A stretch of DNA of 64,000 bases from a bacterium. Lineage in GTDB: Bacteria; UBA8248. The stretch spans positions 160,001 through 224,000 of the forward strand of contig OZ241875.1 of assembly GCA_965203325.1 (NCBI GenBank). The letters run 5' to 3'. The position numbers were made by a program, and so were the translations under genes. Under the pieces are notes generated by a model that saw nothing but the letters and a program-made list of their open reading frames with translations, did not search any database and was not told where the DNA came from. Below are positions 1-14,840 of the stretch, one piece after another. Each line of letters opens with the position of its first letter. Position 1 is the stretch's first letter.

Positions 1-297
1 ACGCAGGATATGTTCGACGTGTATCTCATGTTCATATTCGGCGCGGTCGGCTATATATTCCGCAAGCTCGACTATCCCCTCGCCCCGATGGTGCTGGCCC
101 TGGTCCTGGGCGGGCTGACGGAGCGCACCTTCCGCCAGAGCATGATCATGAGCCACGGGAACCCGGGCATCTTCTTCGACTTCGCGGGCCACCCCATCGC
201 GGCGGCCTTGATGATGGTTTCCCTCGTCTTGTTCATCCTGCCGCTTATTCCGATGATATTCAGGTTCAGGGTTTCCCGGGCGGGCACTTCGGCCTGA
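1..297 (+). CDS. tctA: Tripartite tricarboxylate transporter permease TctA, C-terminal part (5' end outside window)
   Basis: Open from base 1; GYIFRKLDYPLAPMVLALVLGGLTERTFRQSMIMS matches the TctA C-terminus. Confidence 0.85.
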   Translation, partial: TQDMFDVYLMFIFGAVGYIFRKLDYPLAPMVLALVLGGLTERTFRQSMIMSHGNPGIFFDFAGHPIAAALMMVSLVLFILPLIPMIFRFRVSRAGTSA

Positions 298-2496: not shown

Positions 2497-3393
2497 TCAG
2501 GCGTCCATCGCGCACCGGAAGCCGATGTTGAAGTTCTTGTACCAGGGCTCGAAGCCCTCTCTCGCCGAGCACCTAAGGCTGTCTTCGATGTAATCCCAGC
2601 CGCAGCCCCGGGCGACCTTGGCCGTCCAGGCGTAGCCCGCCCGGCGCGGAAGCCAGCCCTCGGTGTCGCCGAAACGGATCCTGTAGCTGTCCTCGTCGCG
2701 GTGGAGGATTTCGTAGCGCTCGCCGCGTTTGACTTCGCCCAGGCTCAGGCTGCCTCCGCCCGGAACGGCGAACACGGGCACCTTCGCCATCGCCACTTCG
2801 AAGGTCGGCTTCTCCAGCCCCCGGGGGTTCTCCGCCGGGCCCGTCTGGTAGTAAAACCCGTCGAACCAGTCCGACACCCACTCGAAGACGTTTCCGGCCA
2901 TCTGCACGCAACCGTAGGGAGAGGCGCTCTCTTCGAACCCGCTCACGTTGGCGGGACAGTGGATATCCGTTTCCGTACTCGCGTAGACGGCCCGTCCGGG
3001 AGAGGGTTCATCCTCGCCCCATGGATACTTGCGCCCATCCGTTCCGCGCGCCGCCTTCTCCCACTCCGCCTCGGTCGGCAGACGCTTGCCCACCCAGCGG
3101 GCGTAGGCGTTCGCCTCCTCCCAACTGATGCTGACGATGGGCTGTTCCGGCCCCACGAAATCATCCCTCGCGAATGAGGGAGGCGGCGGAAACGCTTCGG
3201 TCTCCTCCAGGAAGGCGCGGTACTGCGCGTTCGTCACGCAGTATTTGTCGATCCAGAAAGCGTCGAGCGTAACCTCGCGCTCCGGACGCTCGTCCGCGTT
3301 GCCGACGTCGGAACCCATCAGGAAGGCTCCTTCGGGCACGCACACCATCGCGGCCTCGTCTTTCCCTTTTTTCATTTCCCTCGCTTCGTTCAT
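2497..3393 (-). CDS. Formylglycine-generating enzyme (SUMF1/EgtB/PvdO) family protein with an SH3-like insertion
   Basis: FLMGS, VTNAQY, RLPTEAEWEKAARG, MAGNVFEWVSDW and NIGFRC motifs. Confidence 0.85.
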   Translation of the reverse strand: MNEAREMKKGKDEAAMVCVPEGAFLMGSDVGNADERPEREVTLDAFWIDKYCVTNAQYRAFLEETEAFPPPPSFARDDFVGPEQPIVSISWEEANAYARWVGKRLPTEAEWEKAARGTDGRKYPWGEDEPSPGRAVYASTETDIHCPANVSGFEESASPYGCVQMAGNVFEWVSDWFDGFYYQTGPAENPRGLEKPTFEVAMAKVPVFAVPGGGSLSLGEVKRGERYEILHRDEDSYRIRFGDTEGWLPRRAGYAWTAKVARGCGWDYIEDSLRCSAREGFEPWYKNFNIGFRCAMDA

Positions 3394-3421
3394 CTTCGTC
3401 TCTTCGGAGCAGGCAATAGCG

Positions 3422-3451
3422 AAAAAGAGCGGGACCCCGAAGGGCCCCGCC
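3422..3451 (-). terminator. Rho-independent terminator after the oxidoreductase operon
   Basis: Minus strand GGCGGGGCCC-TTCG-GGGTCCCGCTC-TTTTT, 30 nt past the beta-subunit stop. Confidence 0.75.
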
Positions 3452-3480
3452 CTGGACTTGCCGGTTCTTCGTTCCCTACC

Positions 3481-4509
3481 CTACTTCTTGCTCGGGTCGT
3501 TCACCTTGAAGGGGATGACGCCGGGAACCATCCAGTCGTCCCACATCTTGTCGACTTCGCTCTGGAAGTATTCGTAGTCTTCCTCTACGAAGTGGTGGAA
3601 GCGGCCCTGCGTTTCCAGGTACTCACGCACCGGCTTGCGGCGGCGCTTGCCGTACACCTGCCGTGCCGAAATGCCCGTATAGGTGAGCGCCCCGTCCGTC
3701 ATCTCCCAGAGCGGGAAGAGCCCCGTCTCCACGGCCAGTTCGCCGAGCTTGTGGGAGTAGAACGGGTCGTAGTCCCAGCCTTTGGGGCACGGGTCGAGCG
3801 TGTGCACGAAGGCGGGCCCCTTCACGGCCAGCGCCTTGCGGACCTTGTCGATCAGATCCGCCGGGTAGGAGGCGTCCGCCGTCGCCACGTAGTTGCAGCG
3901 CGTGTGGCCGACCGCGTACATGGCGGCGATGTTCTTTTTCCAGCAGTCGTGCATGATGCGGAACTTCTTGCCCGGAGGCGTGAACGTCGTGTTGGCGCCC
4001 CACGGAGACGCGCCCGAAATCTGGATGTCGGTGTTGGCGTACGACTCGTTGTCGTAGCAGATGATCGCCAGATTGTATTTCGCGTGCATGAGCGCCGCCG
4101 AGATGGACGAGACGCCCATGTCGATGCCGCCGCCGTCGCCGCAGAAGGCGATGACGTTGATGGGCTCTTCCTTCATCTTGCCCTTGCGCATGAGCGCCCG
4201 GAGCGCCGCCGCCGTTCCCGTGGCAGCAGAACCCGAAGAGCCCAGCTGCGTGTGCATCCACGGCACGACCCAGGGGGTGCTGTAGTACGTGGTGTTCGCC
4301 ACGTACATGCAGCCCGTGCTGCCCAGGATGATGGAGCGGGGGCCGGCCGCCTTGGCCATGAGGCGCATGATGAGCGCGCTCTCACAACCCTGGCACGTCC
4401 TGTGTCCGCTGGTGAAATACTCTTCCACCGCCTTTTCGGGGATGGCGTTCACCTTCCCCATCAAGGGAAGTTCCTGTGTCCCGATGTTGTATTCAGAGGT
4501 TTCGGCCAT
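3481..4509 (-). CDS. 2-oxoacid:ferredoxin oxidoreductase beta (TPP-binding) subunit, oxalate oxidoreductase-like
   Basis: GHRTCQGC, GCMYVANT, GDGG...YDNESYANT TPP motif, PCPKGW. Confidence 0.9.
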   Translation of the reverse strand: MAETSEYNIGTQELPLMGKVNAIPEKAVEEYFTSGHRTCQGCESALIMRLMAKAAGPRSIILGSTGCMYVANTTYYSTPWVVPWMHTQLGSSGSAATGTAAALRALMRKGKMKEEPINVIAFCGDGGGIDMGVSSISAALMHAKYNLAIICYDNESYANTDIQISGASPWGANTTFTPPGKKFRIMHDCWKKNIAAMYAVGHTRCNYVATADASYPADLIDKVRKALAVKGPAFVHTLDPCPKGWDYDPFYSHKLGELAVETGLFPLWEMTDGALTYTGISARQVYGKRRRKPVREYLETQGRFHHFVEEDYEYFQSEVDKMWDDWMVPGVIPFKVNDPSKK

Positions 4510-4512
4510 GAT

Positions 4513-5730
4513 TTAGTCCCTCACTCCGATCCAGTCGACATCGTTGTCGGCCGCATCGTTCTGACCCATGGAAATGACCTTGTCAGCCATCAGCTTGACG
4601 TCTTCGAGCAGCACCTCACGGCCACCGAGGCCGCAGACGAATCCTTTCATGTGAGGCACCTTGTCCGCCCCGTACATGGCGGCTTTCACTTCGTTGAACA
4701 CTATACCACCATGATAGGGAGAACCAAACGAGTAGTCACGGTCAATGACGCCCACCGCCTTGAATCGCGAGAGCGACGCACGCAGTTCTTCCGTCGGGAA
4801 GGGGCGGAACCACTTGAGGCGAACCATGCCGACCTTCTTGCCTTCCTTGCGCATCTCGCGGATGGCGACCTTCACCGGCAGGCTCAGCGTCCCCATGCCG
4901 CACAGCACGACGTCGGCGTCCTCGGTCATGTACTCATCGAGGAAGGGGTCCGTGTCCACGCCGAAAGTCTTGCTGAAATCGGCGTGTGCTTCCTTGAGCA
5001 CGGTGTAGGCGTTTTTCGCCGCCTCGCTGCTCTGGCGCCTCACCTCCATCAGCCAGTCTTCGTTCGCCTGGGGCGCGATGGTGATCGGGTTGTCGGGGTG
5101 AAGCAGCAGGTCGCCCCTGTCGTAGGGCGGGAGGAACGCGTTGACTTCCTCCTGGCCGGGCAGCCGCACCGTCGCCTGGCTGTGCGTCAGGAACGCGCCG
5201 TCCATCGCGATGGCGCACGGCAGGTAGACTCTCGGGTCCTCGGCGACGCGATAGGCAAGTAGACCCAGTTCGACGACTTCCTGCGCCGTGTCGGGGAAGT
5301 TGATCATCCAGCCCAGATCGCGCACCAGCATGGCGTCGTTGTGCTCGGTGCCGAACGCGCCGGGATCATCCAACGCGCGGCAGCCCACCAGGGCCACCAT
5401 GGGCAGCCTGAGGCCCGCCGTAACAGCCAGCGGTTCCATCGCGTAGAGCCAGCCCACGCCGCTCGAACCGGTGAACACGCGCGCGCCGCAGGCCGAGGCG
5501 TGCTTGACGATCTCGAACTGGCCGTGCTCGCTCTCCGCCGGAATGTAGTCGGCGTCGAAATCGCCCTCGGCGATGAACTTGGAAACGTACTGCATCACGG
5601 TGTCATACGGCCGGATCGGATACGCCGTGATGACATCCACGTCGGCGAGGCGGCAGACGTGCGCCATGACCTCGCTTCCGGTGAGGAGATGAACTCCCGC
5701 ACCCTGTTGCTGTTCGGTAGCTGTTGCCAT
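4513..5730 (-). CDS. 2-oxoacid:ferredoxin oxidoreductase alpha subunit, oxalate oxidoreductase-like
   Basis: AYPIRP (YPITP in PFOR), ESEH, RVFTGSSGVG, FRPFP, GLGGR. Confidence 0.9.
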   Translation of the reverse strand: MATATEQQQGAGVHLLTGSEVMAHVCRLADVDVITAYPIRPYDTVMQYVSKFIAEGDFDADYIPAESEHGQFEIVKHASACGARVFTGSSGVGWLYAMEPLAVTAGLRLPMVALVGCRALDDPGAFGTEHNDAMLVRDLGWMINFPDTAQEVVELGLLAYRVAEDPRVYLPCAIAMDGAFLTHSQATVRLPGQEEVNAFLPPYDRGDLLLHPDNPITIAPQANEDWLMEVRRQSSEAAKNAYTVLKEAHADFSKTFGVDTDPFLDEYMTEDADVVLCGMGTLSLPVKVAIREMRKEGKKVGMVRLKWFRPFPTEELRASLSRFKAVGVIDRDYSFGSPYHGGIVFNEVKAAMYGADKVPHMKGFVCGLGGREVLLEDVKLMADKVISMGQNDAADNDVDWIGVRD

Positions 5731-5748
5731 CAGTTCGCTCCTATTATC

Positions 5749-6939
5749 CTATTTGAGGTCCTGGAGAGATTTGACCTGGGCCGTTTCGGGGTTGTGACCC
5801 ATCTCGATGCCGATGCCTGAGAACGCCTGCCCGAGACCGGTGATGGGGTGACGACCCTCTATCTTGCCGGTGCTGATCTTCTCGTCCATGTATTTGTCGT
5901 AATCTTCCTTGTTCTCCTGCCACATCTGCCACTGGCTGTCGCGCTCTTCGAAGACGACCTCGTTCACCATGGTGATGCAGTCCTTGACGGGGCAGATGGC
6001 CTCGCACACGCCGCAGCCGCAGCAGGCTTCCATGTTGGCGTCGAAGAAGCCGTCCGGCGTGACGTCGAAACAGGTGTCCGGGCACGCGACCCAGCACAGG
6101 GTGCATTTCGTGCACTTATCGAACGAGACGACCGGACGCATGGTGCGGGTCGACCATTTCTTGAAGTAGGGGTTGCGTCCCGGCTCATAGCCGCCCTCGC
6201 CGCCCCGGAAGCCCTCGTGGCCGCCCACGCCGTCGATGACGACGCCCTGACGCATTTCGTGCCACTTGAGGAGTTCGAACGTGAAGGGGACTTCATCGTT
6301 GCCCTGGCCCGGTTCGATTTCGACGGGACGCAGGTCTTCATAAACTTCTCTCGCGGCTTCGACGTGTGTTTCCGAGCCGATGTTCTCGCGAATCGCCGAT
6401 TCAAGCGACGCGATGGAGCACATGCTGGGCTCGGCCTTGAGGGCCGCCGCCAGACAGCGCGCGTCGGTGCCGTCGTCCTTGTACACCCAGAGGCCGGCGA
6501 AGCTCGCCTCGCCGGGGATGATAGCCAGCTTGTAGGGCGTGTCCCTGCGGTGGATGTGCTGGACGAGTTCGTCTTCTTTCTGGTTGGACGTGACGATCAG
6601 CGTGCCGCCGGGCTTCGTGACGGCGTTGATGGGCTGAAGGCCGTACCATGCCCACGATTCCACGCCCTTGCACAGGGTGTCGTCCACACAGATGGAGATG
6701 TCCACCTGCTTCGGCTCATACTGCGCCGCCACGGTCTCGAGCTCTTCCTCGTTGTCCGCGATGTAGCCGAACTGCTTGGCCGGAATTCCGTTTCGCTCGG
6801 GCGAATCGCTGTAGCGCCCGAAGGAGATGCCCGGCTTTCCTTCTTTCACGGCCGCGAGGATCAACGTCCGTGAAATTTTCACCGCAAGGCTTTTCTGGAA
6901 AATTCCTCTGTAAATGACTTCAAACGATATGACGCTCAC
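5749..6939 (-). CDS. 2-oxoacid:ferredoxin oxidoreductase fused gamma-delta subunit with 2x[4Fe-4S], OOR delta-like
   Basis: N-terminal domain III (YSDSPERNGIP); C-terminal CTKCTLCWVACP and CCGCGVCEAICP; GTG start. Confidence 0.88.
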   Translation of the reverse strand: MSVISFEVIYRGIFQKSLAVKISRTLILAAVKEGKPGISFGRYSDSPERNGIPAKQFGYIADNEEELETVAAQYEPKQVDISICVDDTLCKGVESWAWYGLQPINAVTKPGGTLIVTSNQKEDELVQHIHRRDTPYKLAIIPGEASFAGLWVYKDDGTDARCLAAALKAEPSMCSIASLESAIRENIGSETHVEAAREVYEDLRPVEIEPGQGNDEVPFTFELLKWHEMRQGVVIDGVGGHEGFRGGEGGYEPGRNPYFKKWSTRTMRPVVSFDKCTKCTLCWVACPDTCFDVTPDGFFDANMEACCGCGVCEAICPVKDCITMVNEVVFEERDSQWQMWQENKEDYDKYMDEKISTGKIEGRHPITGLGQAFSGIGIEMGHNPETAQVKSLQDLK

Positions 6940-7010
6940 ATTCGATACCCCCCACTTAGAGTTGAAGAACCAAAACTTTTTGCTTTAAGGCTTTGTTCCC
7001 TGAAAGTCGG

Positions 7011-7754
7011 TTATTCCGATTCGAGTTTCGCCAGATGATCCAGTTTCAAATGGGCTTCGGCCTCGCTGCCCTCAATCTCGACCAGATGGCCGATCATTCC
7101 CGCCATCGCCCTGTTCTTGTCCTTGTCCAAAACGGCGCCCAGAATCTTCTGGTGCGCTTCCCACGAGCGGAAGCGGACATTCCCGTCACGGCGAAGCGAG
7201 CGTTCCCGCATTTCGCTCAGGGAATTGAGCAGACTGCTCAGCAGATGATGGAGGAATTGATTCTTGGCGGCCTCTGCGAGTTCGAGATGAAACTGGGTAT
7301 CCTCCCTCAAACCGAGTCTTCCGCCTTCTATCGCATCATGCTGCCGCTGGATAGTATCTTCGAGCATAACCAACTCCGCCTCAGTCGCGCGCTCGGCGGC
7401 CAGGGCGGCGATTTGCGGCTCCAGCACCATGCGCGCCTCGAAAAGATCGTGGATGCCGCTCGCCGCGTCGGAGGAGACTTTTTCGGAAATCATGGGGAGC
7501 AGGGCCTCAGGCTGCGCCGTGACGAACGTGCCCTCCCCCTGCTTCGTCTCGACGAGCCTGGCGGATTCCAGCGAACGCGTGGCTTCGCGCACCGAATTGC
7601 GGCCCACGCCGAATTGCTCGCAAAGCTCACGCTCCGACGGCAGCTTTTCGCCGGGCTTGATTTCGCCCTCCAGTATCAAAGCCGTGAGTTGTTCGACGAT
7701 GGCCTCGTAGACGCGCGTCTTCTTCACCGTCTGTAGTCTGTCGCTGATGACCAC
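7011..7754 (-). CDS. FadR/GntR family transcriptional regulator (PdhR/LldR/GlcC-like)
   Basis: KPGEKLPSERELCEQFGVGRNSVREA wHTH plus FCD domain (FHLELAEAAKN). Confidence 0.92.
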   Translation of the reverse strand: MVISDRLQTVKKTRVYEAIVEQLTALILEGEIKPGEKLPSERELCEQFGVGRNSVREATRSLESARLVETKQGEGTFVTAQPEALLPMISEKVSSDAASGIHDLFEARMVLEPQIAALAAERATEAELVMLEDTIQRQHDAIEGGRLGLREDTQFHLELAEAAKNQFLHHLLSSLLNSLSEMRERSLRRDGNVRFRSWEAHQKILGAVLDKDKNRAMAGMIGHLVEIEGSEAEAHLKLDHLAKLESE

Positions 7755-7806
7755 GCTTCAAGCCCCCGAATAAGTGCCTCACAGAGAGGCTTATCACCTT
7801 ATGGGA

Positions 7807-7817
7807 TTGTCCTACCA
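7807..7817. promoter_or_regulatory. Putative FadR-family operator TGGTAGGACAA
   Basis: Fits the TxGT-N3-ACxA consensus; sits just downstream of the -10 box, around the predicted transcription start. Confidence 0.65.
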
Positions 7818-7820
7818 GTA

Positions 7821-7849
7821 AATTTACGTCTGTTTCCGGGAGGTGTCAA
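7821..7849 (-). promoter_or_regulatory. Sigma70 promoter of the gntR-oxidoreductase operon
   Basis: TTGACA (7849-7844), 17-bp spacer, TAAATT (7826-7821). Confidence 0.75.
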
Positions 7850-7984
7850 CCGTAAATACGGGAAAATGCCGGGTTTTAGGGTCCGAATATGCGGAAATCG
7901 GCGATATCCATTGCCTTCATTTCACTTCCCCATCGGAATTCAGGGTTTCAGTAGGGACTTGTCCGACCTTCGAGACTGTTCGCC

Positions 7985-8073
7985 GTAGGGACAGGCCCCG
8001 TGCCTGTCCGCTCGAATCACAACCACGGGGGTGGACAAATCCGATACGGGCGGCCACGGGGGGCCGCCCCTGC
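7985..8073. repeat. Inverted doublet of GTAG-family REP-like palindromes (REPIN-like)
   Basis: GTAGGGACAGGCCCCGTGCCTGTCC (7985-8009) and inverted GCAGGGGCGGCCCCCCGTGGCCGCCC (8073-8048); the second unit recurs at 56006-56031. Confidence 0.75.
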
Positions 8074-8195
8074 GAAGCCTCTTCGTTCATCATCCCGATG
8101 CCCGCCCCTAAGGTCATCCCCGCCTACCCCCGCCTCCGTCAAAATGCTAGGATTTCCCGTCTTCAATTTCGCCTCATCATCTTCTCGATGAAAGA

Positions 8196-9419
8196 TTGAA
8201 TGCCTTGAAGAAATGGCAACTCCTCGGCCTGCTCACCATCGGCCACGCTTGCGAACACTGGTTCCAGGGCGTTCTGGGGCCCGTCATCCCCTACCTGACC
8301 GACGATCTGGGCCTCACGCTCACCCAGGTGGGACTCCTCTTCACCGGCAGAGCGGTCATGAGCGCCTTGAGCAGCGTGGGAACGGGCTACGTCATCGACG
8401 TCTACGGCGGCGGAAAATGGCTGCTGGTCGGGTGCATGGCTTCGGCCGCCCTGTTCTACGGCGGGGCGGGCTTCGCGACGGGATTCTGGACGCTCGCCCC
8501 CATCATCTGGCTGAGCGGTCTGGCGACGCACACCTGGCACCCTCCCTCCATGGGGCTGCTGGGCATGCGCTTCGATGATCGAAAGGGTTTCGCGCTGGGC
8601 GTGCACGGCACGGGCGCGAACCTGGGGCAGACCCTGGCGCCCATCATCGCGGGTTATCTGCTCCTCCTCATGAGCTGGCGGGGCGTCCTGCTGGCGAACA
8701 CGATTCCTCTTCTCGTCACGGCGATGCTCTTGTGGATTTTTCTGGAGCCGTTCCAGATCAGCGGAAAGCAAAAACCCGGCTCCTCGATCACCCCCCGCAA
8801 TTTCGTGGATGCGCTCATCAAAAACCCGGGGATGATGGGGGCTTGCGTCCTCTCGGGCGTGCGGACGCTCGCGCACAACATCGTCGCGATTTTCCTGCCC
8901 ATCCTGCTGGTGAGAAAATACGGCGTGGGGCCGAGCACCCTGGGCCTTGCGCTCGGCGTGTATTCGGCGGCCTCCATATTTCCCGAAACGATCGTGGGCT
9001 ATCTCTCCGACAGGATTTCCCGAAAATTGATCCTCTTCATCGGGACCGCCGCCGGCGGAATCGCGCTGTTCCTGATCCCCCACGCGGGCACGGGAATTTC
9101 CCTCTACGCCTGCATCGCGTCGGTCGGCGTTTTTCTCATCTCCATGCGCTCGGTGATTTTCGCATACAGCTTCGAGGTCAGCCCGCCCAGGCTGGCGGGA
9201 AGCGTCGTCGGCGTTATTTTTACGGCGAACCAGATTTTCGTTGGCCTGGGGTTGTTCTTTCTGGGTATACTGGCGGACGCATACGGCTTGGAGCTCGTTT
9301 TCGGGACCATCGGCATCGCATGTCTGGGGAGTCTGGTCGCTTTCTCCTGGTTGCCTCGATCGGAGAAGAATTCGGACCTTCGCCAGGCAGCGGCGAATCC
9401 GGGAGATCCTGTGCGCTAG
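8196..9419 (+). CDS. MFS transporter (Fsr-like)
   Basis: 407 aa, about 12 TM segments, GYLSDRISRK motif A, WHPPS and G-x-HG-x-GAN-x-G motifs; TTG start. Confidence 0.88.
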   Translation: MNALKKWQLLGLLTIGHACEHWFQGVLGPVIPYLTDDLGLTLTQVGLLFTGRAVMSALSSVGTGYVIDVYGGGKWLLVGCMASAALFYGGAGFATGFWTLAPIIWLSGLATHTWHPPSMGLLGMRFDDRKGFALGVHGTGANLGQTLAPIIAGYLLLLMSWRGVLLANTIPLLVTAMLLWIFLEPFQISGKQKPGSSITPRNFVDALIKNPGMMGACVLSGVRTLAHNIVAIFLPILLVRKYGVGPSTLGLALGVYSAASIFPETIVGYLSDRISRKLILFIGTAAGGIALFLIPHAGTGISLYACIASVGVFLISMRSVIFAYSFEVSPPRLAGSVVGVIFTANQIFVGLGLFFLGILADAYGLELVFGTIGIACLGSLVAFSWLPRSEKNSDLRQAAANPGDPVR

Positions 9420-9449
9420 TCCTTCATGATTTGTGCGGGGGGATGTCAT

Positions 9450-12400
9450 ATGAGCGTTCGGATTGAAGAACATCCGGGATTTTCCCATATCGAAAAACTC
9501 TTGCCGGGCGGCGCCCCCACGCCCGCGGCGAAGGACCTCCTGGCCCTGATCGGGGTCAGCGATCCGGTAGGCGTAACCAGAAACCTCCAGTCCCTGGCCT
9601 TACACCCCGCGTTCCCGCGCAACAACTCCGAGTTTTTGCTCCAATTGTTGTCCTCCCTGCGCAACACGTTCGACCCCGAACGCGCCCTGAGCAATTTCGA
9701 GCGCATTCTGGGCACCCGCGAGAACCCGGACCTGCTGTTGAGATCCCTCACCCGCTCGGATGAGCGCAGGGCGGAATTTTTCGCGCTGGCGGGCGGGAGC
9801 CAGTTTCTGATCGAAACGATTCTTCGGCATCCCCGTTTTCTCGACTGGCTCCTTCGGCCCGGCACGCTGAGTACCGCCCGCACGAAGGAAAAAATGGTCT
9901 CCGAGCTATGGAAGTGGGTGCAGGAGAACCAGGATGCACCCAATGGGCCGGAAAACGCGATGCGCCGGTTCCGTCAGCGCGAATACCTGAGAATCGCGGT
10001 GCTGGATCTGTTGCGGCGGGCGTCGCTCATGGAAATCACCACGAATCTCTCCCACCTGGCGGACGCCTGCCTGGAGGTGGCGGTCCGCCTCGCAAGGGCC
10101 GAGCTCGTGGAAAAATACGGGAAACCCCGCCACAAAGGGGCGGACGGGAGATGGCGAAGCACCGAATTCAGCGTGATCGGGATGGGCAAGCTCGGCGGTC
10201 TTGAACTCAACTTCAGTTCGGACATCGATCTGATCTTCGTGTATTCATCGGACGAAGGAGAGACGACCGGGGTGACGGACGCGATCACGGGCCGGACGAA
10301 AAGGAGCATCTCCAACCACGAGTTTTTCGCCCATCTCTCCCGGCGCCTCATATCCCTGATGGCGAAAAACACCGAAGAGGGCCATGTGTTCCGGATAGAC
10401 ACGCGCCTCAGGCCCGAGGGGTCGCAAGGCGCACTGGCGTATTCGCTCAGAAGCTGTGAGGTGTATTACGAATCCTGGGGCGAGACGTGGGAGCGGCAGG
10501 CTCTCATCAAATCCCGGCACTGCGCGGGTTCCGCCGCCTTGAGCGACGACTTCATGAAGATGATTCGCCCGTTCGTGTACCGGCGGACGATGGACATCAG
10601 CGTGCTCGAGGAGATCGGCCGCATCAAGGGCCGCATCAACGAAAACCTCAAAGGCGTGGACGCGGCGACGCGAAACGTGAAGCTCGGCGAAGGCGGCATC
10701 CGCGAGATCGAATTCATCACCCAGGCATTGCAGCTCATCTACGGCGGCCGCGAAACGCTGCTCCAGAACCCGGGCACGCTGGCGGGCCTTTCCATCATCG
10801 AGGCGCTCGGCCTTTTGCCCGCCCATGAATGCGACCAACTCTCGAACGCCTACGTGTTCCTAAGAGACGTGGAGCACCGCGTCCAGGTCACGCACGGGCT
10901 CCAGACGCACGAGGTCCCGGCGGACGAGAAGAGTCTGAACGTGCTGGCCCGCAAGATGGACTGCGCGGAAAGCGCTGAACTGAGAACCCGGCTGGCGTAT
11001 CACCAGAACAACGTATCCAGGGTTTTTGAAAACATGTTCCGGGGTGAAAACGGGGAAGAGGAAACGCCGTCGCCGGGCGGCGCGCCGACGCCGGCGCTTA
11101 CGCTGGGCGACTCGCTGTCCGCCGAGGACCTGGGCTCCTACAGCTTCGTGGACCCCGAAGGCGTGAGCACGCACCTCAAACTCCTGCGCAACGGCGCATC
11201 GCTCGAACACGTGAGCGCCAAGGCGAAGCGGATTTTCGACGAACTACTCCCCCGCATGTTGCACCAGACGCTCGATCTCCCCGAGCCGGACAGGGCCATC
11301 GCGCACCTCAATAAATTCGTGGAGCGGGGGGGCGGGCGCGAATCCATCCTGGGGTTCATGGCCGAGCAGGAAGAATCGCTGGAAATCATTCTCAAACTCT
11401 TCGCTTCGAGCAATTATCTGGCCGAGGTGCTGATCGAACAACCCGGGCTCCTGGAGACGCTCTTTCAGAGGGAAACGCTCACCGAGCCGCGCTCCGAGGC
11501 GCTGCTCGCCGAAGAGCTGAACAAAATAACGGGCGCCCAAATCTCGCCGGAAGAAAAATTCAACCGCCTGCATCTGCTCAAGAAAAGCGAGGAACTCGCC
11601 ATCGGCATCAGAAGCATTCTCGGGGCGGCGGACATCCTCGAAACGCTCTCCGCCCTCTCCCACCTCGCCGAAGCAATACTCAAGAGCGGCTACGATATCG
11701 CCCACGAGAGAATGCTGAAACTCTACGGCGTCCCGATGGAGGAGGAGACGGGGGCGGAAGCCCGGTTCGCCATCATCGGCCTCGGCAAGCTGGGCAGCGG
11801 GGAGATGAACTACGGCTCGGACCTCGACCTGATATTCGTCTACAGCGCCGCCGGGACGACGAGCGGCCAATTCGACGGCAAACCAGCCGAATACCGAGCC
11901 GTCTCGAACCACGAATTCTACATCAAGGTCGCCACGTTCCTGCGCGACAGCCTGGCCGCATCGGGCTCCCGTGAGAGGACATACGAGATGGACCTGCGCC
12001 TGCGGCCCGAAGGAGTGAAGGGCGCATTGGTCGCGCCGGTGGATGTATTCAAAGATTACTTTAATAACCGGGCTGAAACATGGGAAAGACAAGCACTTAC
12101 AAGATCAAGACATGTCGCGGGATGTGAAGGGTTCGGCGCGCAGTTCATGGAGTTGGTGAATGAATTCGTGTATGTGCGCGAAGCGCCCGCGGACCTCGCC
12201 GAACAGGTGCGTCACATGCGCGGACGCATCGAAAAAGAACTCTCCGCCGAGGATGAGGGAATCGCCGACATCAAGCTCGGTCGCGGGGGGATCATCGACA
12301 TCGAGTTCTTGACGCAGTATCTATTGATAGGAAATGGAGGAGCGCATCCGGATATCCGGGTTCCGAACACCTACCTCGCCCTGCAGGCCTTGAAGGAAGC

Positions 12401-12665
12401 GGGTTTTCTCTCGGGCGAGGATGCCGGGGCGTTGCTCGATGGGTACCGCTTCCTGCGCCTCGTCGAGAATCGTCTCCGCATCGGGAATGCGCAATCGATC
12501 AACATCTTTTTGAAAACGAGACACGCCATGAACATGTTGGCGCGGCGAATGAATTTCGTGGATGATATGGATGGAAGCGCCAACGCCAAATTGTTGGCCC
12601 GGTTCGAAATGCATACGGACCGCGTGAGGCAGGTCTATGAGAAAATCGTAACCGCGAACAAGTGA
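9450..12665 (+). CDS. glnE: Bifunctional glutamine synthetase adenylyltransferase/deadenylase
   Basis: Two nucleotidyltransferase halves: GMGKLGGLELNFSSDIDL and GLGKLGSGEMNYGSDLDL, each with RLRPEG, WERQAL and KLG-x-GGI. Confidence 0.95.
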   Translation: MSVRIEEHPGFSHIEKLLPGGAPTPAAKDLLALIGVSDPVGVTRNLQSLALHPAFPRNNSEFLLQLLSSLRNTFDPERALSNFERILGTRENPDLLLRSLTRSDERRAEFFALAGGSQFLIETILRHPRFLDWLLRPGTLSTARTKEKMVSELWKWVQENQDAPNGPENAMRRFRQREYLRIAVLDLLRRASLMEITTNLSHLADACLEVAVRLARAELVEKYGKPRHKGADGRWRSTEFSVIGMGKLGGLELNFSSDIDLIFVYSSDEGETTGVTDAITGRTKRSISNHEFFAHLSRRLISLMAKNTEEGHVFRIDTRLRPEGSQGALAYSLRSCEVYYESWGETWERQALIKSRHCAGSAALSDDFMKMIRPFVYRRTMDISVLEEIGRIKGRINENLKGVDAATRNVKLGEGGIREIEFITQALQLIYGGRETLLQNPGTLAGLSIIEALGLLPAHECDQLSNAYVFLRDVEHRVQVTHGLQTHEVPADEKSLNVLARKMDCAESAELRTRLAYHQNNVSRVFENMFRGENGEEETPSPGGAPTPALTLGDSLSAEDLGSYSFVDPEGVSTHLKLLRNGASLEHVSAKAKRIFDELLPRMLHQTLDLPEPDRAIAHLNKFVERGGGRESILGFMAEQEESLEIILKLFASSNYLAEVLIEQPGLLETLFQRETLTEPRSEALLAEELNKITGAQISPEEKFNRLHLLKKSEELAIGIRSILGAADILETLSALSHLAEAILKSGYDIAHERMLKLYGVPMEEETGAEARFAIIGLGKLGSGEMNYGSDLDLIFVYSAAGTTSGQFDGKPAEYRAVSNHEFYIKVATFLRDSLAASGSRERTYEMDLRLRPEGVKGALVAPVDVFKDYFNNRAETWERQALTRSRHVAGCEGFGAQFMELVNEFVYVREAPADLAEQVRHMRGRIEKELSAEDEGIADIKLGRGGIIDIEFLTQYLLIGNGGAHPDIRVPNTYLALQALKEAGFLSGEDAGALLDGYRFLRLVENRLRIGNAQSINIFLKTRHAMNMLARRMNFVDDMDGSANAKLLARFEMHTDRVRQVYEKIVTANK

Positions 12666-12737
12666 CCCCCGGCGGGAGCCGCCGGCCGGGCAACCCCGCG
12701 CATCCCTTTTCGCACAACCAACGCCAGAGGACTCGAA

Positions 12738-13961
12738 TTGCTTATCAATCCAGATCGTTTTCGCCTGTCCATGGAGGAGATGGCCCGGGTCGGAGCGACT
12801 AAAGGAGGCGGCGTCAACCGCCTCACGCTCACCGACGCCGACAAGGAAGCCAGGGATTTGTTCGCCGCGTGGGTGGGCGAGGCCGGCCTCGATTTGCGGA
12901 TCGACGAGATGGGAAACATGTTCGCAAGGCGCGCGGGCCGGGAAAACGACGCCCCTCCCGCCATGGCGGGCAGCCACCTGGACTCCGTGCCGAACGGCGG
13001 CCGCTTCGATGGCTCGCTGGGCGTACTGGCCGCCCTGGAAGCCGTGAGGACGCTGAACGACAAGAACATATCGACGAGACGCCCGGTAGAGATCGTCAAC
13101 TGGACGAACGAGGAGGGCCCCCGCTTTCCGCCTTCGATGCTCGGAAGCGGCGTGTTCGCGGGCGCGATACCGCTCGAGGCGGCCTATGAGACGAGAGACG
13201 CTGATGGCGCGAGGTTTATCGATGAACTCGAGCGCATCGGCTACCGGGGAGATGCGCCCTGCACCCCCCGGCCGGTCGGGGCCTACCTCGAACTCCACAT
13301 CGAGCAAGGCCCCGCTCTCGTGAGCGAGGGGGTTCAGGTAGGCGTCGTGGAGGGGATTTTCGGCCTAACCTGGCTGCGGGTCGCCATGAAAGGAGAGCGC
13401 GACCACGCCGGCCCCACGCCGATGCACATGCGGCGCGACGCCCTGGTGGGTGCGGCGCGCACGATTGCGGCCATCCGTGAAATCCCGGGGAAACTGCATC
13501 CCGAATTCGTCGCCACGGTGGGGGAATTCTCCCTCTCCCCAGGCGCGATTAACGTCATCCCCGATGACGTGACGTTTTCGGTCGATTTCAGGCACAGCGA
13601 CCCGGAACTGCTCGGTGAGGCGCGAAAGCTCATCGAGGAGGCCGCGCACAGAGAAGCGGAGAAGGAAAATCTCGAGGTTGAGATTCAGGACGTCGGCGGC
13701 TCTACCCCCACCGCTTTTGACGCAAGCGTGGCGCAGGCCGTCAGGAGCGCGTGCGAGGAGTCGGGCTACAGCCACCGCTCCATGTGGAGCGCCGCCGGGC
13801 ACGACGCCCGCTATGCGGCCGACCTCGGGCCCACGGCCATGATCTTCGTGCCCTGCGTCGCCGGCAAGAGCCACTCCGAAGAAGAGGACATGGACTGGGA
13901 GGACGCCTACCGGGGCTGCGACGTCCTGGTGCGCGGGTTGCTGAAAACGGCGGATTCTTGA
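12738..13961 (+). CDS. M20 Zn-dependent amidohydrolase (allantoate / N-carbamoyl-L-amino acid amidohydrolase family)
   Basis: GSHLDSVPNGGRFDG, NEEG, ELHIEQGP, SAAGHDA, SHSEEE. Confidence 0.92.
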   Translation: MLINPDRFRLSMEEMARVGATKGGGVNRLTLTDADKEARDLFAAWVGEAGLDLRIDEMGNMFARRAGRENDAPPAMAGSHLDSVPNGGRFDGSLGVLAALEAVRTLNDKNISTRRPVEIVNWTNEEGPRFPPSMLGSGVFAGAIPLEAAYETRDADGARFIDELERIGYRGDAPCTPRPVGAYLELHIEQGPALVSEGVQVGVVEGIFGLTWLRVAMKGERDHAGPTPMHMRRDALVGAARTIAAIREIPGKLHPEFVATVGEFSLSPGAINVIPDDVTFSVDFRHSDPELLGEARKLIEEAAHREAEKENLEVEIQDVGGSTPTAFDASVAQAVRSACEESGYSHRSMWSAAGHDARYAADLGPTAMIFVPCVAGKSHSEEEDMDWEDAYRGCDVLVRGLLKTADS

Positions 13962-14000
13962 GCGGAACATATTCCACACAGTAAGGATGAGGGGAAACGA

Positions 14001-14840
14001 ATGGCTAGAGTGAAATGGGAAAACGGGGCGCGATGCGCCGTGTGTCTGACTTTCGACGTGGACGGCGAGACGGTCTGGATGGGCCGGGACCCCTCGTTGG
14101 GGGGCCGCCCCATCCACAACTCCATGGGGGCTTACGGCCCCAAGGTGGGGATCCCGCGGATACTCAAGTTGTTGAAGAAATACAACCTGCCCGGCGCTTT
14201 CTACATCCCGAGCTGGACGGTGGAGAAATGGCCCAAGATGACCGAGTCCATCGTGAAGGCGGGGCATGAAATCGGCCACCACGGCCACATTCACGAAAAA
14301 CCCTACCAGATGTGCGACGCCGAACGCGAAGAGGAGTTGCTCGTGCGCGCCCTCGATATCTTAAGGCGCGATACGGGACAGGAAATCCTGGGGTCCCGCA
14401 CCCCCTCGGCGGACCCGAGCGTCCACACGATGGGGCTGCTCAAGAAATACGGGCTTTTGTACCACTCGAACATGATGGACGACGACTGGCCCTACTACCA
14501 CGATTGCGGCCTCGTCGAGTTGCCCACCAAGTGGAGCCTCGACGATTTCATCTTCTTCGCCCACAGCACGAACCCCCCGCTCGGCCACGGCATCCGCGAC
14601 CCCGAATCGGTCTATTCGATATGGGTCGAGGAGTTCGAGGGCACGTATGAGGAAGGCGGATACATCAACATCATGTGCCATCCCCAGATCATCGGCCAGC
14701 ACCACCGGATGCGGATGCTCGAGCGGCTTATTCAGCACATCCTCGCGAAGGGCGACGCCTGGGTCGCCGCACCTGTCGACGTGGCGAAGTGCTGGGCTTC
14801 ACAAAGAAAAGCACCCAGGGCGAGAAGAGCGAGAAGATAG
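14001..14840 (+). CDS. Polysaccharide deacetylase family protein (PuuE/HP0310-like)
   Basis: LTFDVD, YGPKVGIPRIL, HEIGHHGHIH, HPQIIG. Confidence 0.88.
   Translation: MARVKWENGARCAVCLTFDVDGETVWMGRDPSLGGRPIHNSMGAYGPKVGIPRILKLLKKYNLPGAFYIPSWTVEKWPKMTESIVKAGHEIGHHGHIHEKPYQMCDAEREEELLVRALDILRRDTGQEILGSRTPSADPSVHTMGLLKKYGLLYHSNMMDDDWPYYHDCGLVELPTKWSLDDFIFFAHSTNPPLGHGIRDPESVYSIWVEEFEGTYEEGGYINIMCHPQIIGQHHRMRMLERLIQHILAKGDAWVAAPVDVAKCWASQRKAPRARRARR

Follow-up and report, generated by a model that had tools for sequence, protein, structure and literature searches.

Sequence, phylogenetic, and gene neighborhood evidence point to an enzyme that probably oxidizes oxalate without coenzyme A (CoA), encoded between positions 3,481 and 7,849 of a 64,000-nucleotide stretch of bacterial DNA (the window; GenBank contig OZ241875.1 of assembly GCA_965203325.1, GTDB lineage UBA8248). 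The operon comprises a GntR/FadR-family regulator and three enzyme chains, which are alpha, beta, and a fused gamma-delta. We propose that the product is most probably a CoA-independent oxalate:ferredoxin oxidoreductase belonging to a sister clade of the oxalate oxidoreductase (OOR) of Moorella thermoacetica, with the active-site acids rearranged. The sister relationship is supported by phylogeny, and the window enzyme's own substrate would be that of its clade. To our knowledge, OOR has been characterized from one acetogen so far.

Searches of Protein Data Bank (PDB) sequences with phmmer placed M. thermoacetica OOR (PDB 5C4I) first for every chain: alpha matched chain A (E = 6e-98; next 9BT4, 4e-61), beta matched chain C (E = 1.7e-84; next 9BT4, 3.5e-59), and gamma-delta matched chain B (E = 9e-19). 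Foldseek searches with predicted models gave the same ranking as sequence, again with Moorella OOR first (template modeling score of 0.85 for alpha); identity to that enzyme is about 40% for alpha and 22 to 25% for gamma-delta. By these matches, the open reading frames (ORFs) have the domain architecture described for OOR (I-II, VI, and fused III-V; PMC5020499), and the three subunits named in an earlier reading of the letters alone (the sequence-only reading) are borne out. The NCBIfam OOR model was the top-scoring model for each chain, though below cut-off: 365 bits against 500 for alpha (NF045791), 341 against 590 for beta (NF045792), and 90.8 against 230 for gamma-delta (NF045790). For alpha, PorA_Arch came close behind at 326 bits. 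The named members among the 120 best homologues (62 to 93% identity) are called pyruvate ferredoxin oxidoreductase or hypothetical protein, the pyruvate label that had been foreseen for routine annotation.

The alpha chain keeps both arginines of the OOR active site and lacks the acid of its switch loop. YPIRP begins at residue 37 (Arg40) and CRALDDPGAFGTEH at residue 117 (Arg118, Asp122, and Ala125), where the sequence-only reading had placed them. The phmmer alignment to 5C4I chain A runs through this loop without gaps, pairing Arg118 with Arg109, Asp122 with Pro113, Ala125 with Asp116, and Phe126 with Phe117; Arg40 and Gln221 correspond to Arg31 and Gln211. This alignment had been set beforehand as a test, and Ala125 does pair with Asp116, so that the claims of retained Arg31 and Arg109 and of Asp116 and Pro113 replaced by Ala and Asp hold. 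Arg31 is described as an oxalate-binding residue in a motif unique to OOR, and Asp116, the bait-and-switch residue, as important in the mechanism (PMC5020499). Since all 120 best homologues carry YPIRP and RALDDPGAFG (in full, [NC]RALDDPGAFG[VTC]EHND), a sequencing error does not explain the Ala/Asp substitution. The OOR motifs listed in the earlier reading likewise agree with OOR residues in the alpha and beta alignments; beta has GHRTC at 35, GCMYVANT at 66, and NESYANT at 154. Also present are the thiamine pyrophosphate (TPP)/Mg motif (GDGG at beta 124 and Asn154) and ligands for three [4Fe-4S] clusters (beta Cys39, Cys42, Cys67, and Cys241, and CxxCxxCxxxCP at gamma-delta 276 and 306).

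Phylogenetic analysis separated this enzyme from YPITP relatives. In a tree of 45 alpha chains (IQ-TREE, LG+C20+F+G4; support as bootstrap/SH-aLRT), with the root assumed among YPITP enzymes, 23 YPIRP and 22 YPITP proteins split at 100/100. The nine Asp116 proteins cluster together (100/100), and their sister group (98/95) consists of 13 Ala116 proteins and one Asn116 protein; the window's enzyme lies on this Ala/Asn branch, outside the Asp116 clade and apart from the YPITP enzymes, as the claim of a sister clade of OOR predicted. The Moorella sequence is itself no row of the tree and is represented by P0353, P0130, and P0326, which score over the NF045791 cut-off. A first tree, with 50 rows, contained the same groups; eight of its rows, including P0254 and the partial P0196, were left out because their branches were long or their composition was odd. 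P0254 and P0405 represent a deeper relative on a long branch, which carries LPIRP and RVLDQPGSF and has neither Asp113 nor Asp116.

The enzyme is widespread. A scan of GTDB genomes yielded at least 577 confirmed stretches, and the best 80 of these (loci L001 to L080; 65 distant and 15 closest) come from Nitrospinota, Tectomicrobia, Acidobacteriota, Myxococcales, Deltaproteobacteria, Gammaproteobacteria, Dehalococcoidia, Methylomirabilales, and other groups. In even samples that excluded the seed genomes, 6 of 300 Acidobacteriota genomes had the Ala type and 2 had the Asp type; among 200 Chloroflexota genomes, the numbers were 5 and 1, respectively. Within the window's genus, the operon is present in 19 of 22 other genomes, and neither enzyme nor regulator was found in the closed genomes G001 and G006. 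No close relative was found on plasmids (best match, 33% identity).

To follow the active-site acids through the family, we compiled 339 distinct YPIRP-type alpha chains, those derived from loci being picked by loop pattern. Among the 331 with a readable loop (8 more were unreadable), 200 have Asp113/Ala116 (OOR numbering), 126 have Pro113/Asp116, 3 have Asp113/Asn116, and 2 have Gln113/Ser116; none has both Asp113 and Asp116. These counts reflect one or two evolutionary events, not hundreds. Asp122 and Glu73 (with Lys76) occur in all of 50 Ala-type and 11 basal sequences and in 0 of 50 Asp-type sequences. On the Ala-type side, Asp108 of the Asp type is Asn or Cys, and the plug loop differs too. 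In beta, Gly145 of OOR corresponds to Asp161; the corresponding NTD is found in 71/71 readable Ala-type beta chains of L001 to L080, and the same Asp occurs in a YPIRPYTE subgroup.

Two candidate substitutes for Asp116 were set aside. Beta Asp161 is not a required replacement, as Gly is kept in L141 (Ala116) and L139 (Asn116), and alpha Asp43 is Thr in all 11 basal sequences. L139 and L141 are basal relatives from metagenomes; L141, the deepest Ala116 member, combines Ala116 with the beta Gly and no Asp43. Asp122 and Glu73 occur in every Ala-type and basal sequence, which makes them stronger candidates for a relocated acid than Asp43 and Asp161; the latter two are present in the window's enzyme and were added later. 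The sequence-only reading had left the choice between a relocated acid and a different substrate: the former appears plausible in view of these two branch-wide acids, and the gene neighborhoods described below favor oxalate over the latter.

Several sequence features argue for the CoA independence that had been suggested. The Gly-rich CoA loop, which we take to read GRGGQG, is missing. At the domain III position where the P-loop of Moorella PFOR (pyruvate:ferredoxin oxidoreductase) binds CoA (PMC8091585), the window's chain and other readable members have YRGIFQK and OOR has RGVVMNK, and no readable clade member has a Gly-rich loop in this domain. The earlier reading was correct about the loop and not about the start of the chain, which begins MSVISFEVI; YRGIFQKSLA occupies residues 10 to 19 and aligns with RGVVMNKDAR of the OOR chain. 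TIGR02175 matches gamma-delta only from model position 14, and PF01558, which finds a two-subunit 2-oxoacid:ferredoxin oxidoreductase (OFOR) elsewhere in the genome, has no match on this chain. Beta Asp161 lies two residues past Asn159 (equivalent to Asn996 and Leu123b) and aligns with the CoA-binding Lys125b of the Sulfolobus enzyme, a residue described as critical for CoA and extending into the cleft between the TPP domains (PMC5020499, which also equates Leu123b with Asn996). The residue here is Gly in 1B0P, 6CIN, 9BT4, and OOR and Lys in the genome's two-subunit OFOR, so the window's enzyme has neither the Gly nor the Lys of CoA-dependent PFOR, VOR, and OGOR enzymes; an acid at this position would fit exclusion of CoA. 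The Thr of YPITP, which binds the substrate carboxylate in those enzymes, is Arg in 120/120 homologues.

The gene neighborhoods of relatives, clustered around the 80 loci, connect the clade with oxalate. A full-length OxlT-type antiporter occurs in 34 of the 65 distant loci and passes TIGR04259 where tested; three further members of the cluster are fragments. Where at least 1.5 kb follows beta, 35 of 52 distant loci have a member of the OxlT cluster, and by phylum the cluster is present in Acidobacteriota (28/39), Myxococcota (6/9), Pseudomonadota (1/5), Dormiibacterota (1/1), and Chloroflexota (0/3). A representative matched Oxalobacter OxlT best (E = 3e-63, versus 2e-36 for the lactate transporter SfMCT), scoring over the NCBIfam cut-off of SfMCT as well. 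These neighbors keep Gln34, Tyr35, Arg272, and Lys355, the last two of which bind the two carboxylates of oxalate in OxlT (PMC10070484). The four highest-ranking PDB matches of an acyl-CoA ligase gene present at 17 loci are all oxalate-CoA ligases (412 bits, versus 241 for the next kind); the gene is followed by a PanE-like reductase gene (15 loci in all), likened by name, orthology aside, to panE2, which encodes oxalyl-CoA reductase (PMC12686821). Together with genes resembling glyoxylate aminotransferase (10 loci) and malate synthase (8 loci), they complete an assimilation route. L029 adds a formyl-CoA transferase over cut-off and, before the operon, ferredoxin-like and flavoprotein reductase-like genes recognized by reading, with no NCBIfam hit.

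The strongest single observation for the oxalate link is the acidobacterial locus L128, where ligase, PanE, and regulator genes, a canonical Asp-type OOR, and OxlT stand together in this order, the neighbors being 84 to 86% identical to their Ala-type counterparts. This arrangement implies that the two enzyme types fill one operon slot. The canonical OOR of L129 also has an OxlT neighbor, and the Asn116 relative L139 adjoins an OxlT-type gene. A 700- to 780-residue gene precedes gamma in the Asp-type OOR operons L128:13008-15269, L129:13100-15451, and L149:5769-7880 (Acidobacteriota and Chloroflexota); in L128 it encodes a CDC48-like AAA ATPase, and Ala-type operons have no such gene. The regulator cluster is present at 58/80 loci. 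Linkage of the enzyme to a FadR-type sensor, as the sequence-only reading had it, is thus upheld and its exclusivity is not, because a regulator with 85% identity to the window's stands first in a canonical OOR operon. At L048, L050, and L074 (Dehalococcoidia), the enzyme genes follow an Mrp-like antiporter set (by reading), and no regulator is present there.

Some genomes carry two such operons. In L040 (positions 2744-12295; genome G041), a single regulator sits between a canonical Asp116 OOR operon and an Ala116 operon placed back to back, and the Asp type has a separate gamma chain and a 610-residue delta chain fused to a GltD-like flavoprotein. The fusion suggests an NAD(P)-linked OOR, and the pair may differ in acceptor, not substrate. 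G185 (L134/L135) and G268 (L136/L137) each carry two Ala-type operons, every one of which has a regulator and an OxlT-type gene of its own; malate synthase-like and isocitrate lyase genes adjoin the second copy.

Several observations weigh against oxalate oxidation by the window's enzyme. In its genome, nothing scores over the cut-offs for OxlT, oxc, or frc, which is why the substrate is taken from the clade, and the ligase and PanE-like gene have only distant matches there (31 to 33% identity). No oxalate gene occurs at any of the 15 closest loci. The OxlT counts are not independent, as 28 of the 36 loci in that cluster are acidobacterial. Asp116, for all its described importance in OOR, is absent, and the alpha model is unreliable (predicted local distance difference test below 50) at active-site loops 90-107, 119-139, and 209-222. 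Finally, the presence of both types in L040 and of two Ala-type copies in G185 and G268 allows for different substrates.

We rate it unlikely, though worth keeping in view, that the TPP/Fe-S enzyme of the Ala clade instead oxidizes oxamate or another C2 acid with a single charge to CO2 and carbamate or cyanate, or converts oxalate nonoxidatively to formate; in the literature searched, neither oxamate oxidation nor formate release is described as a physiological OFOR activity. A CoA-independent oxidoreductase for another small acid (oxamate, glyoxylate, or mesoxalate) is distinctly improbable. A loop that has lost its carboxylate would be suited to a substrate with an uncharged amide or aldehyde end, with oxamate giving CO2 and carbamate or cyanate, and the change of Asp116 to Ala is fixed in 200 sequences with Asp108 and the plug loop also altered, but both arginines are conserved, and the transporter retains the pair of cationic residues to which the two oxalate carboxylates bind. 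Glyoxylate enzymes are neighbors too, yet these would be expected from oxalate assimilation via oxalyl-CoA. The two types interchange in one operon with a near-identical regulator and transporter, and although they stand side by side in L040, a difference in acceptors (the delta-GltD-like fusion) also explains their cohabitation. The window's own neighborhood, with no oxalate gene, fits another substrate as well.

A nonoxidative oxalate decarboxylase has only a slight chance of being the correct reading. Without Asp116, the TPP enamine would be protonated to give formate, feeding an antiporter and thereby a membrane potential: OxlT is an oxalate:formate antiporter (PMC10070484) and OOR yields no formate, and the Sulfolobus enzyme decarboxylates pyruvate nonoxidatively without cluster or CoA (PMC5020499). 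Against this, the cysteines for three clusters are all conserved, the canonical OORs of L128 and L129 share the OxlT neighbor, redox-partner-like genes precede the L029 operon, and the window's genome has no OxlT. Least credible, and very improbable, is an ordinary CoA-dependent 2-oxoacid oxidoreductase of the pyruvate synthase type. Database names say so, the PorA_Arch score approaches that of the OOR model, and the OOR cut-offs are missed; yet the YPITP Thr is Arg, readable members have no Gly loop, an Asp stands at the CoA-lysine position, the tree separates the enzyme from 22 YPITP sequences at 100/100, and the genome already has five E1 dehydrogenase matches and a two-subunit OFOR with CoA features.

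For the favored oxalate:ferredoxin oxidoreductase, catalysis would proceed in the order of steps of OOR. Arg40, Arg118, Gln221, and beta Asn159 would hold the oxalate dianion, and TPP would add to one carboxyl carbon. A first CO2 would then be released, two electrons would run through the three [4Fe-4S] clusters to ferredoxin, and carboxy-TPP would give up the second CO2 (the names of intermediates are taken from the titles of 5EXD and 5EXE). The role of Asp116 would be taken over by another acid (Asp122/Glu73 or the later-added Asp43/beta Asp161) or would be dispensable. The products, 2 CO2 and reduced ferredoxin, would serve a probably oxygen-respiring heterotroph, with the FadR-type regulator repressing transcription at its predicted operator until an effector binds.

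The four ORFs lie on the minus strand in the order regulator, gamma-delta, alpha, and beta, with gaps of 71, 18, and 3 bases; their coordinates are collected in the table.

Features of the operon within the window (alpha and beta residues numbered by chain)
Feature	Positions	Strand	Basis
Sigma-70-like promoter (TTGACA-17-TAAATT)	7821..7849	-	Consensus scan, 10/12 matches
Candidate FadR-type operator TGGTAGGACAA, just 3' of the -10 box	7807..7817	-	FadR-like pattern
GntR/FadR-family regulator (HTH + FCD), 247 aa, first gene of the operon	7011..7754	-	Pfam, over cut-off
Fused gamma-delta chain, 396 aa: domain III without Gly-rich CoA loop, and 2x[4Fe-4S] domain	5749..6939	-	
Alpha chain, 405 aa: YPIRP (Arg40), Arg118, Asp122, Ala125, Phe126, Gln221	4513..5730	-	
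Alpha chain, further clade acids: Asp43, Glu73, Glu224	4513..5730	-	Motif counts
Beta chain, 342 aa: TPP/Mg motif GDGG...N154, Asn159, Asp161; cluster Cys39/42/67/241	3481..4509	-	
Intrinsic terminator after beta	3426..3453	-	12-pair stem, 9 G-C pairs, T tail

The promoter, whose -35 box marks the end of the region at position 7849, and the terminator at 3453-3426 delimit a transcription unit of regulator, gamma-delta, alpha, and beta. Sigma-70-like sites of comparable quality number 3 in 6.3 kb versus 1.4 expected, weak evidence alone. The regulator has the features of the GntR/FadR family (PF00392, GntR helix-turn-helix, 86 bits; PF07729, FCD, 86.5 bits). The FadR-like pattern behind the candidate operator matches 12 of 58 regions upstream of the regulator versus 2.7% of shuffles; 7 of these matches are in close kin, 4 in distant loci, and 1 off target.

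Two flanking genes were considered as operon members and rejected: the FGE-like gene (2497-3393, -), beyond the terminator, is syntenic in 11 close and 0 distant loci, and the divergent MFS gene (8196-9419) is syntenic in 12 close and 0 distant loci. The former encodes an FGE-sulfatase-domain protein with an inserted SH3-like stretch (by reading of the sequence) and has five paralogues in the genome. The latter opens a one-directional set (8196-14840, +) of MFS transporter, glnE, a Zn-dependent N-carbamoyl hydrolase of the allantoate amidohydrolase family, and a PuuE-like deacetylase, kept in close kin only. Between tctA and the FGE-like gene, 300-2400 is an insertion relative to most kin, with an ORF bearing a weak ricin-type lectin domain (372-953, -) and an SRPBCC/AHSA1 ORF (1270-1953, -); an apparent remnant of an integrase arm-binding domain lies near 1070-1210 (by reading of the sequence). 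A TctCBA transporter (G000:C1:157175-160297, window 10-297, +) is convergent with the operon. Its subfamily lies beside the enzyme in unrelated phyla at loci with no OxlT (L033, L051, L058, L061, L062, and L153). The transporter was considered as a possible oxalate importer, but it is kept in G001 and G006 without the operon, and none of its plasmid homologues adjoins an oxalate gene.

In the host genome, heme-copper oxidase subunit I is matched at 591 bits, which falls short of the TIGR02891 cut-off. There are also five E1 dehydrogenase matches, and a pattern search gave one small ferredoxin-like ORF; together these suggest a respiring heterotroph. Searches with the window's chains (tblastn and phmmer) had indicated the only OFOR of the genome; PF01558 overturned this by finding the two-subunit OFOR at C1:3546851-3549730, which has AGDSGDG, YPITP, YGLTKGQ, and all CoA features. 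A marine and a sponge study supplied RNA-library contigs of a 95 to 96% identical strain, which cover the operon and weakly hint at its expression. Contigs of this kind show neither the strand nor the level of expression, and nothing follows from a lack of cover. In runs X1 and X2, both from one study, the contigs stop at 3479, beside the terminator, which is a weak hint in its favor; 8566-9288 has no cover in four RNA runs. Calcium oxalate occurs in sponges, and oxalate use has been predicted for related symbionts (PMC10227082).

Moorella OOR (EC 1.2.7.10; PDB 5C4I, 5EXD, and 5EXE; NF045790 to NF045792) shares with the window's enzyme the alpha, beta, and fused gamma-delta chains, YPIRP Arg31, Arg109, Phe117, Gln211, beta Asn143, the TPP and cluster motifs, and the absence of a Gly-rich loop. 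Relative to it, Asp116 is Ala, Pro113 is Asp, Asp108 is Cys, Thr34 is Asp, Ser64 is Glu, beta Gly145 is Asp, and the plug loop reads QANEDW for QIEPAM; unlike the acetogen, the window's host has a heme-copper oxidase and E1 dehydrogenases. The window's enzyme thus appears OOR-like in its working while lying outside the current definition of OOR, from which it departs in Asp116, model cut-offs, and clade membership. The four-subunit PFOR of Methanosarcina acetivorans (9BT4) and PorABCD, VorABCD, and PadEFGI share the fold family and give second-best matches, but they have YPITP, not YPIRP, and separate gamma and delta chains, depend on CoA, and are set apart from the window's enzyme by the 100/100 split (the 9BT4 sequence itself not being in the tree). 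Oxalobacter-type oxalotrophy (Oxc/Frc/OxlT) and oxalyl-CoA assimilation (oxalate-CoA ligase and PanE2) share OxlT-type, ligase, and PanE-like genes with the relatives' neighborhoods, whereas the proposed enzyme would oxidize oxalate directly on TPP, with neither CoA ester nor formate.

We found no description of the Ala-type clade in the literature searched, which covered neither supplements nor subscription journals. In the portions covered, a 2026 PFOR review mentions OOR in its introduction only, and two oxalotrophy papers do not treat it. Oxalotrophy surveys rest on oxc, frc, oxdC, and oxlT (PMC10192776), and PMC13147460 filters OOR out with NF045791. In the samples searched, the canonical type is no more common than the Ala-type clade, which occurs in genomes with respiratory oxidases. 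If its members oxidize oxalate, surveys based on the four genes overlook a catabolic step, and those using an NF045791 filter would count such genes as pyruvate or oxoglutarate synthases. As a natural "D116A" enzyme, it allows a direct test of the bait-and-switch model for C-C cleavage on TPP, and its members are nonacetogen candidates for the interconversion of CO2 and oxalate.

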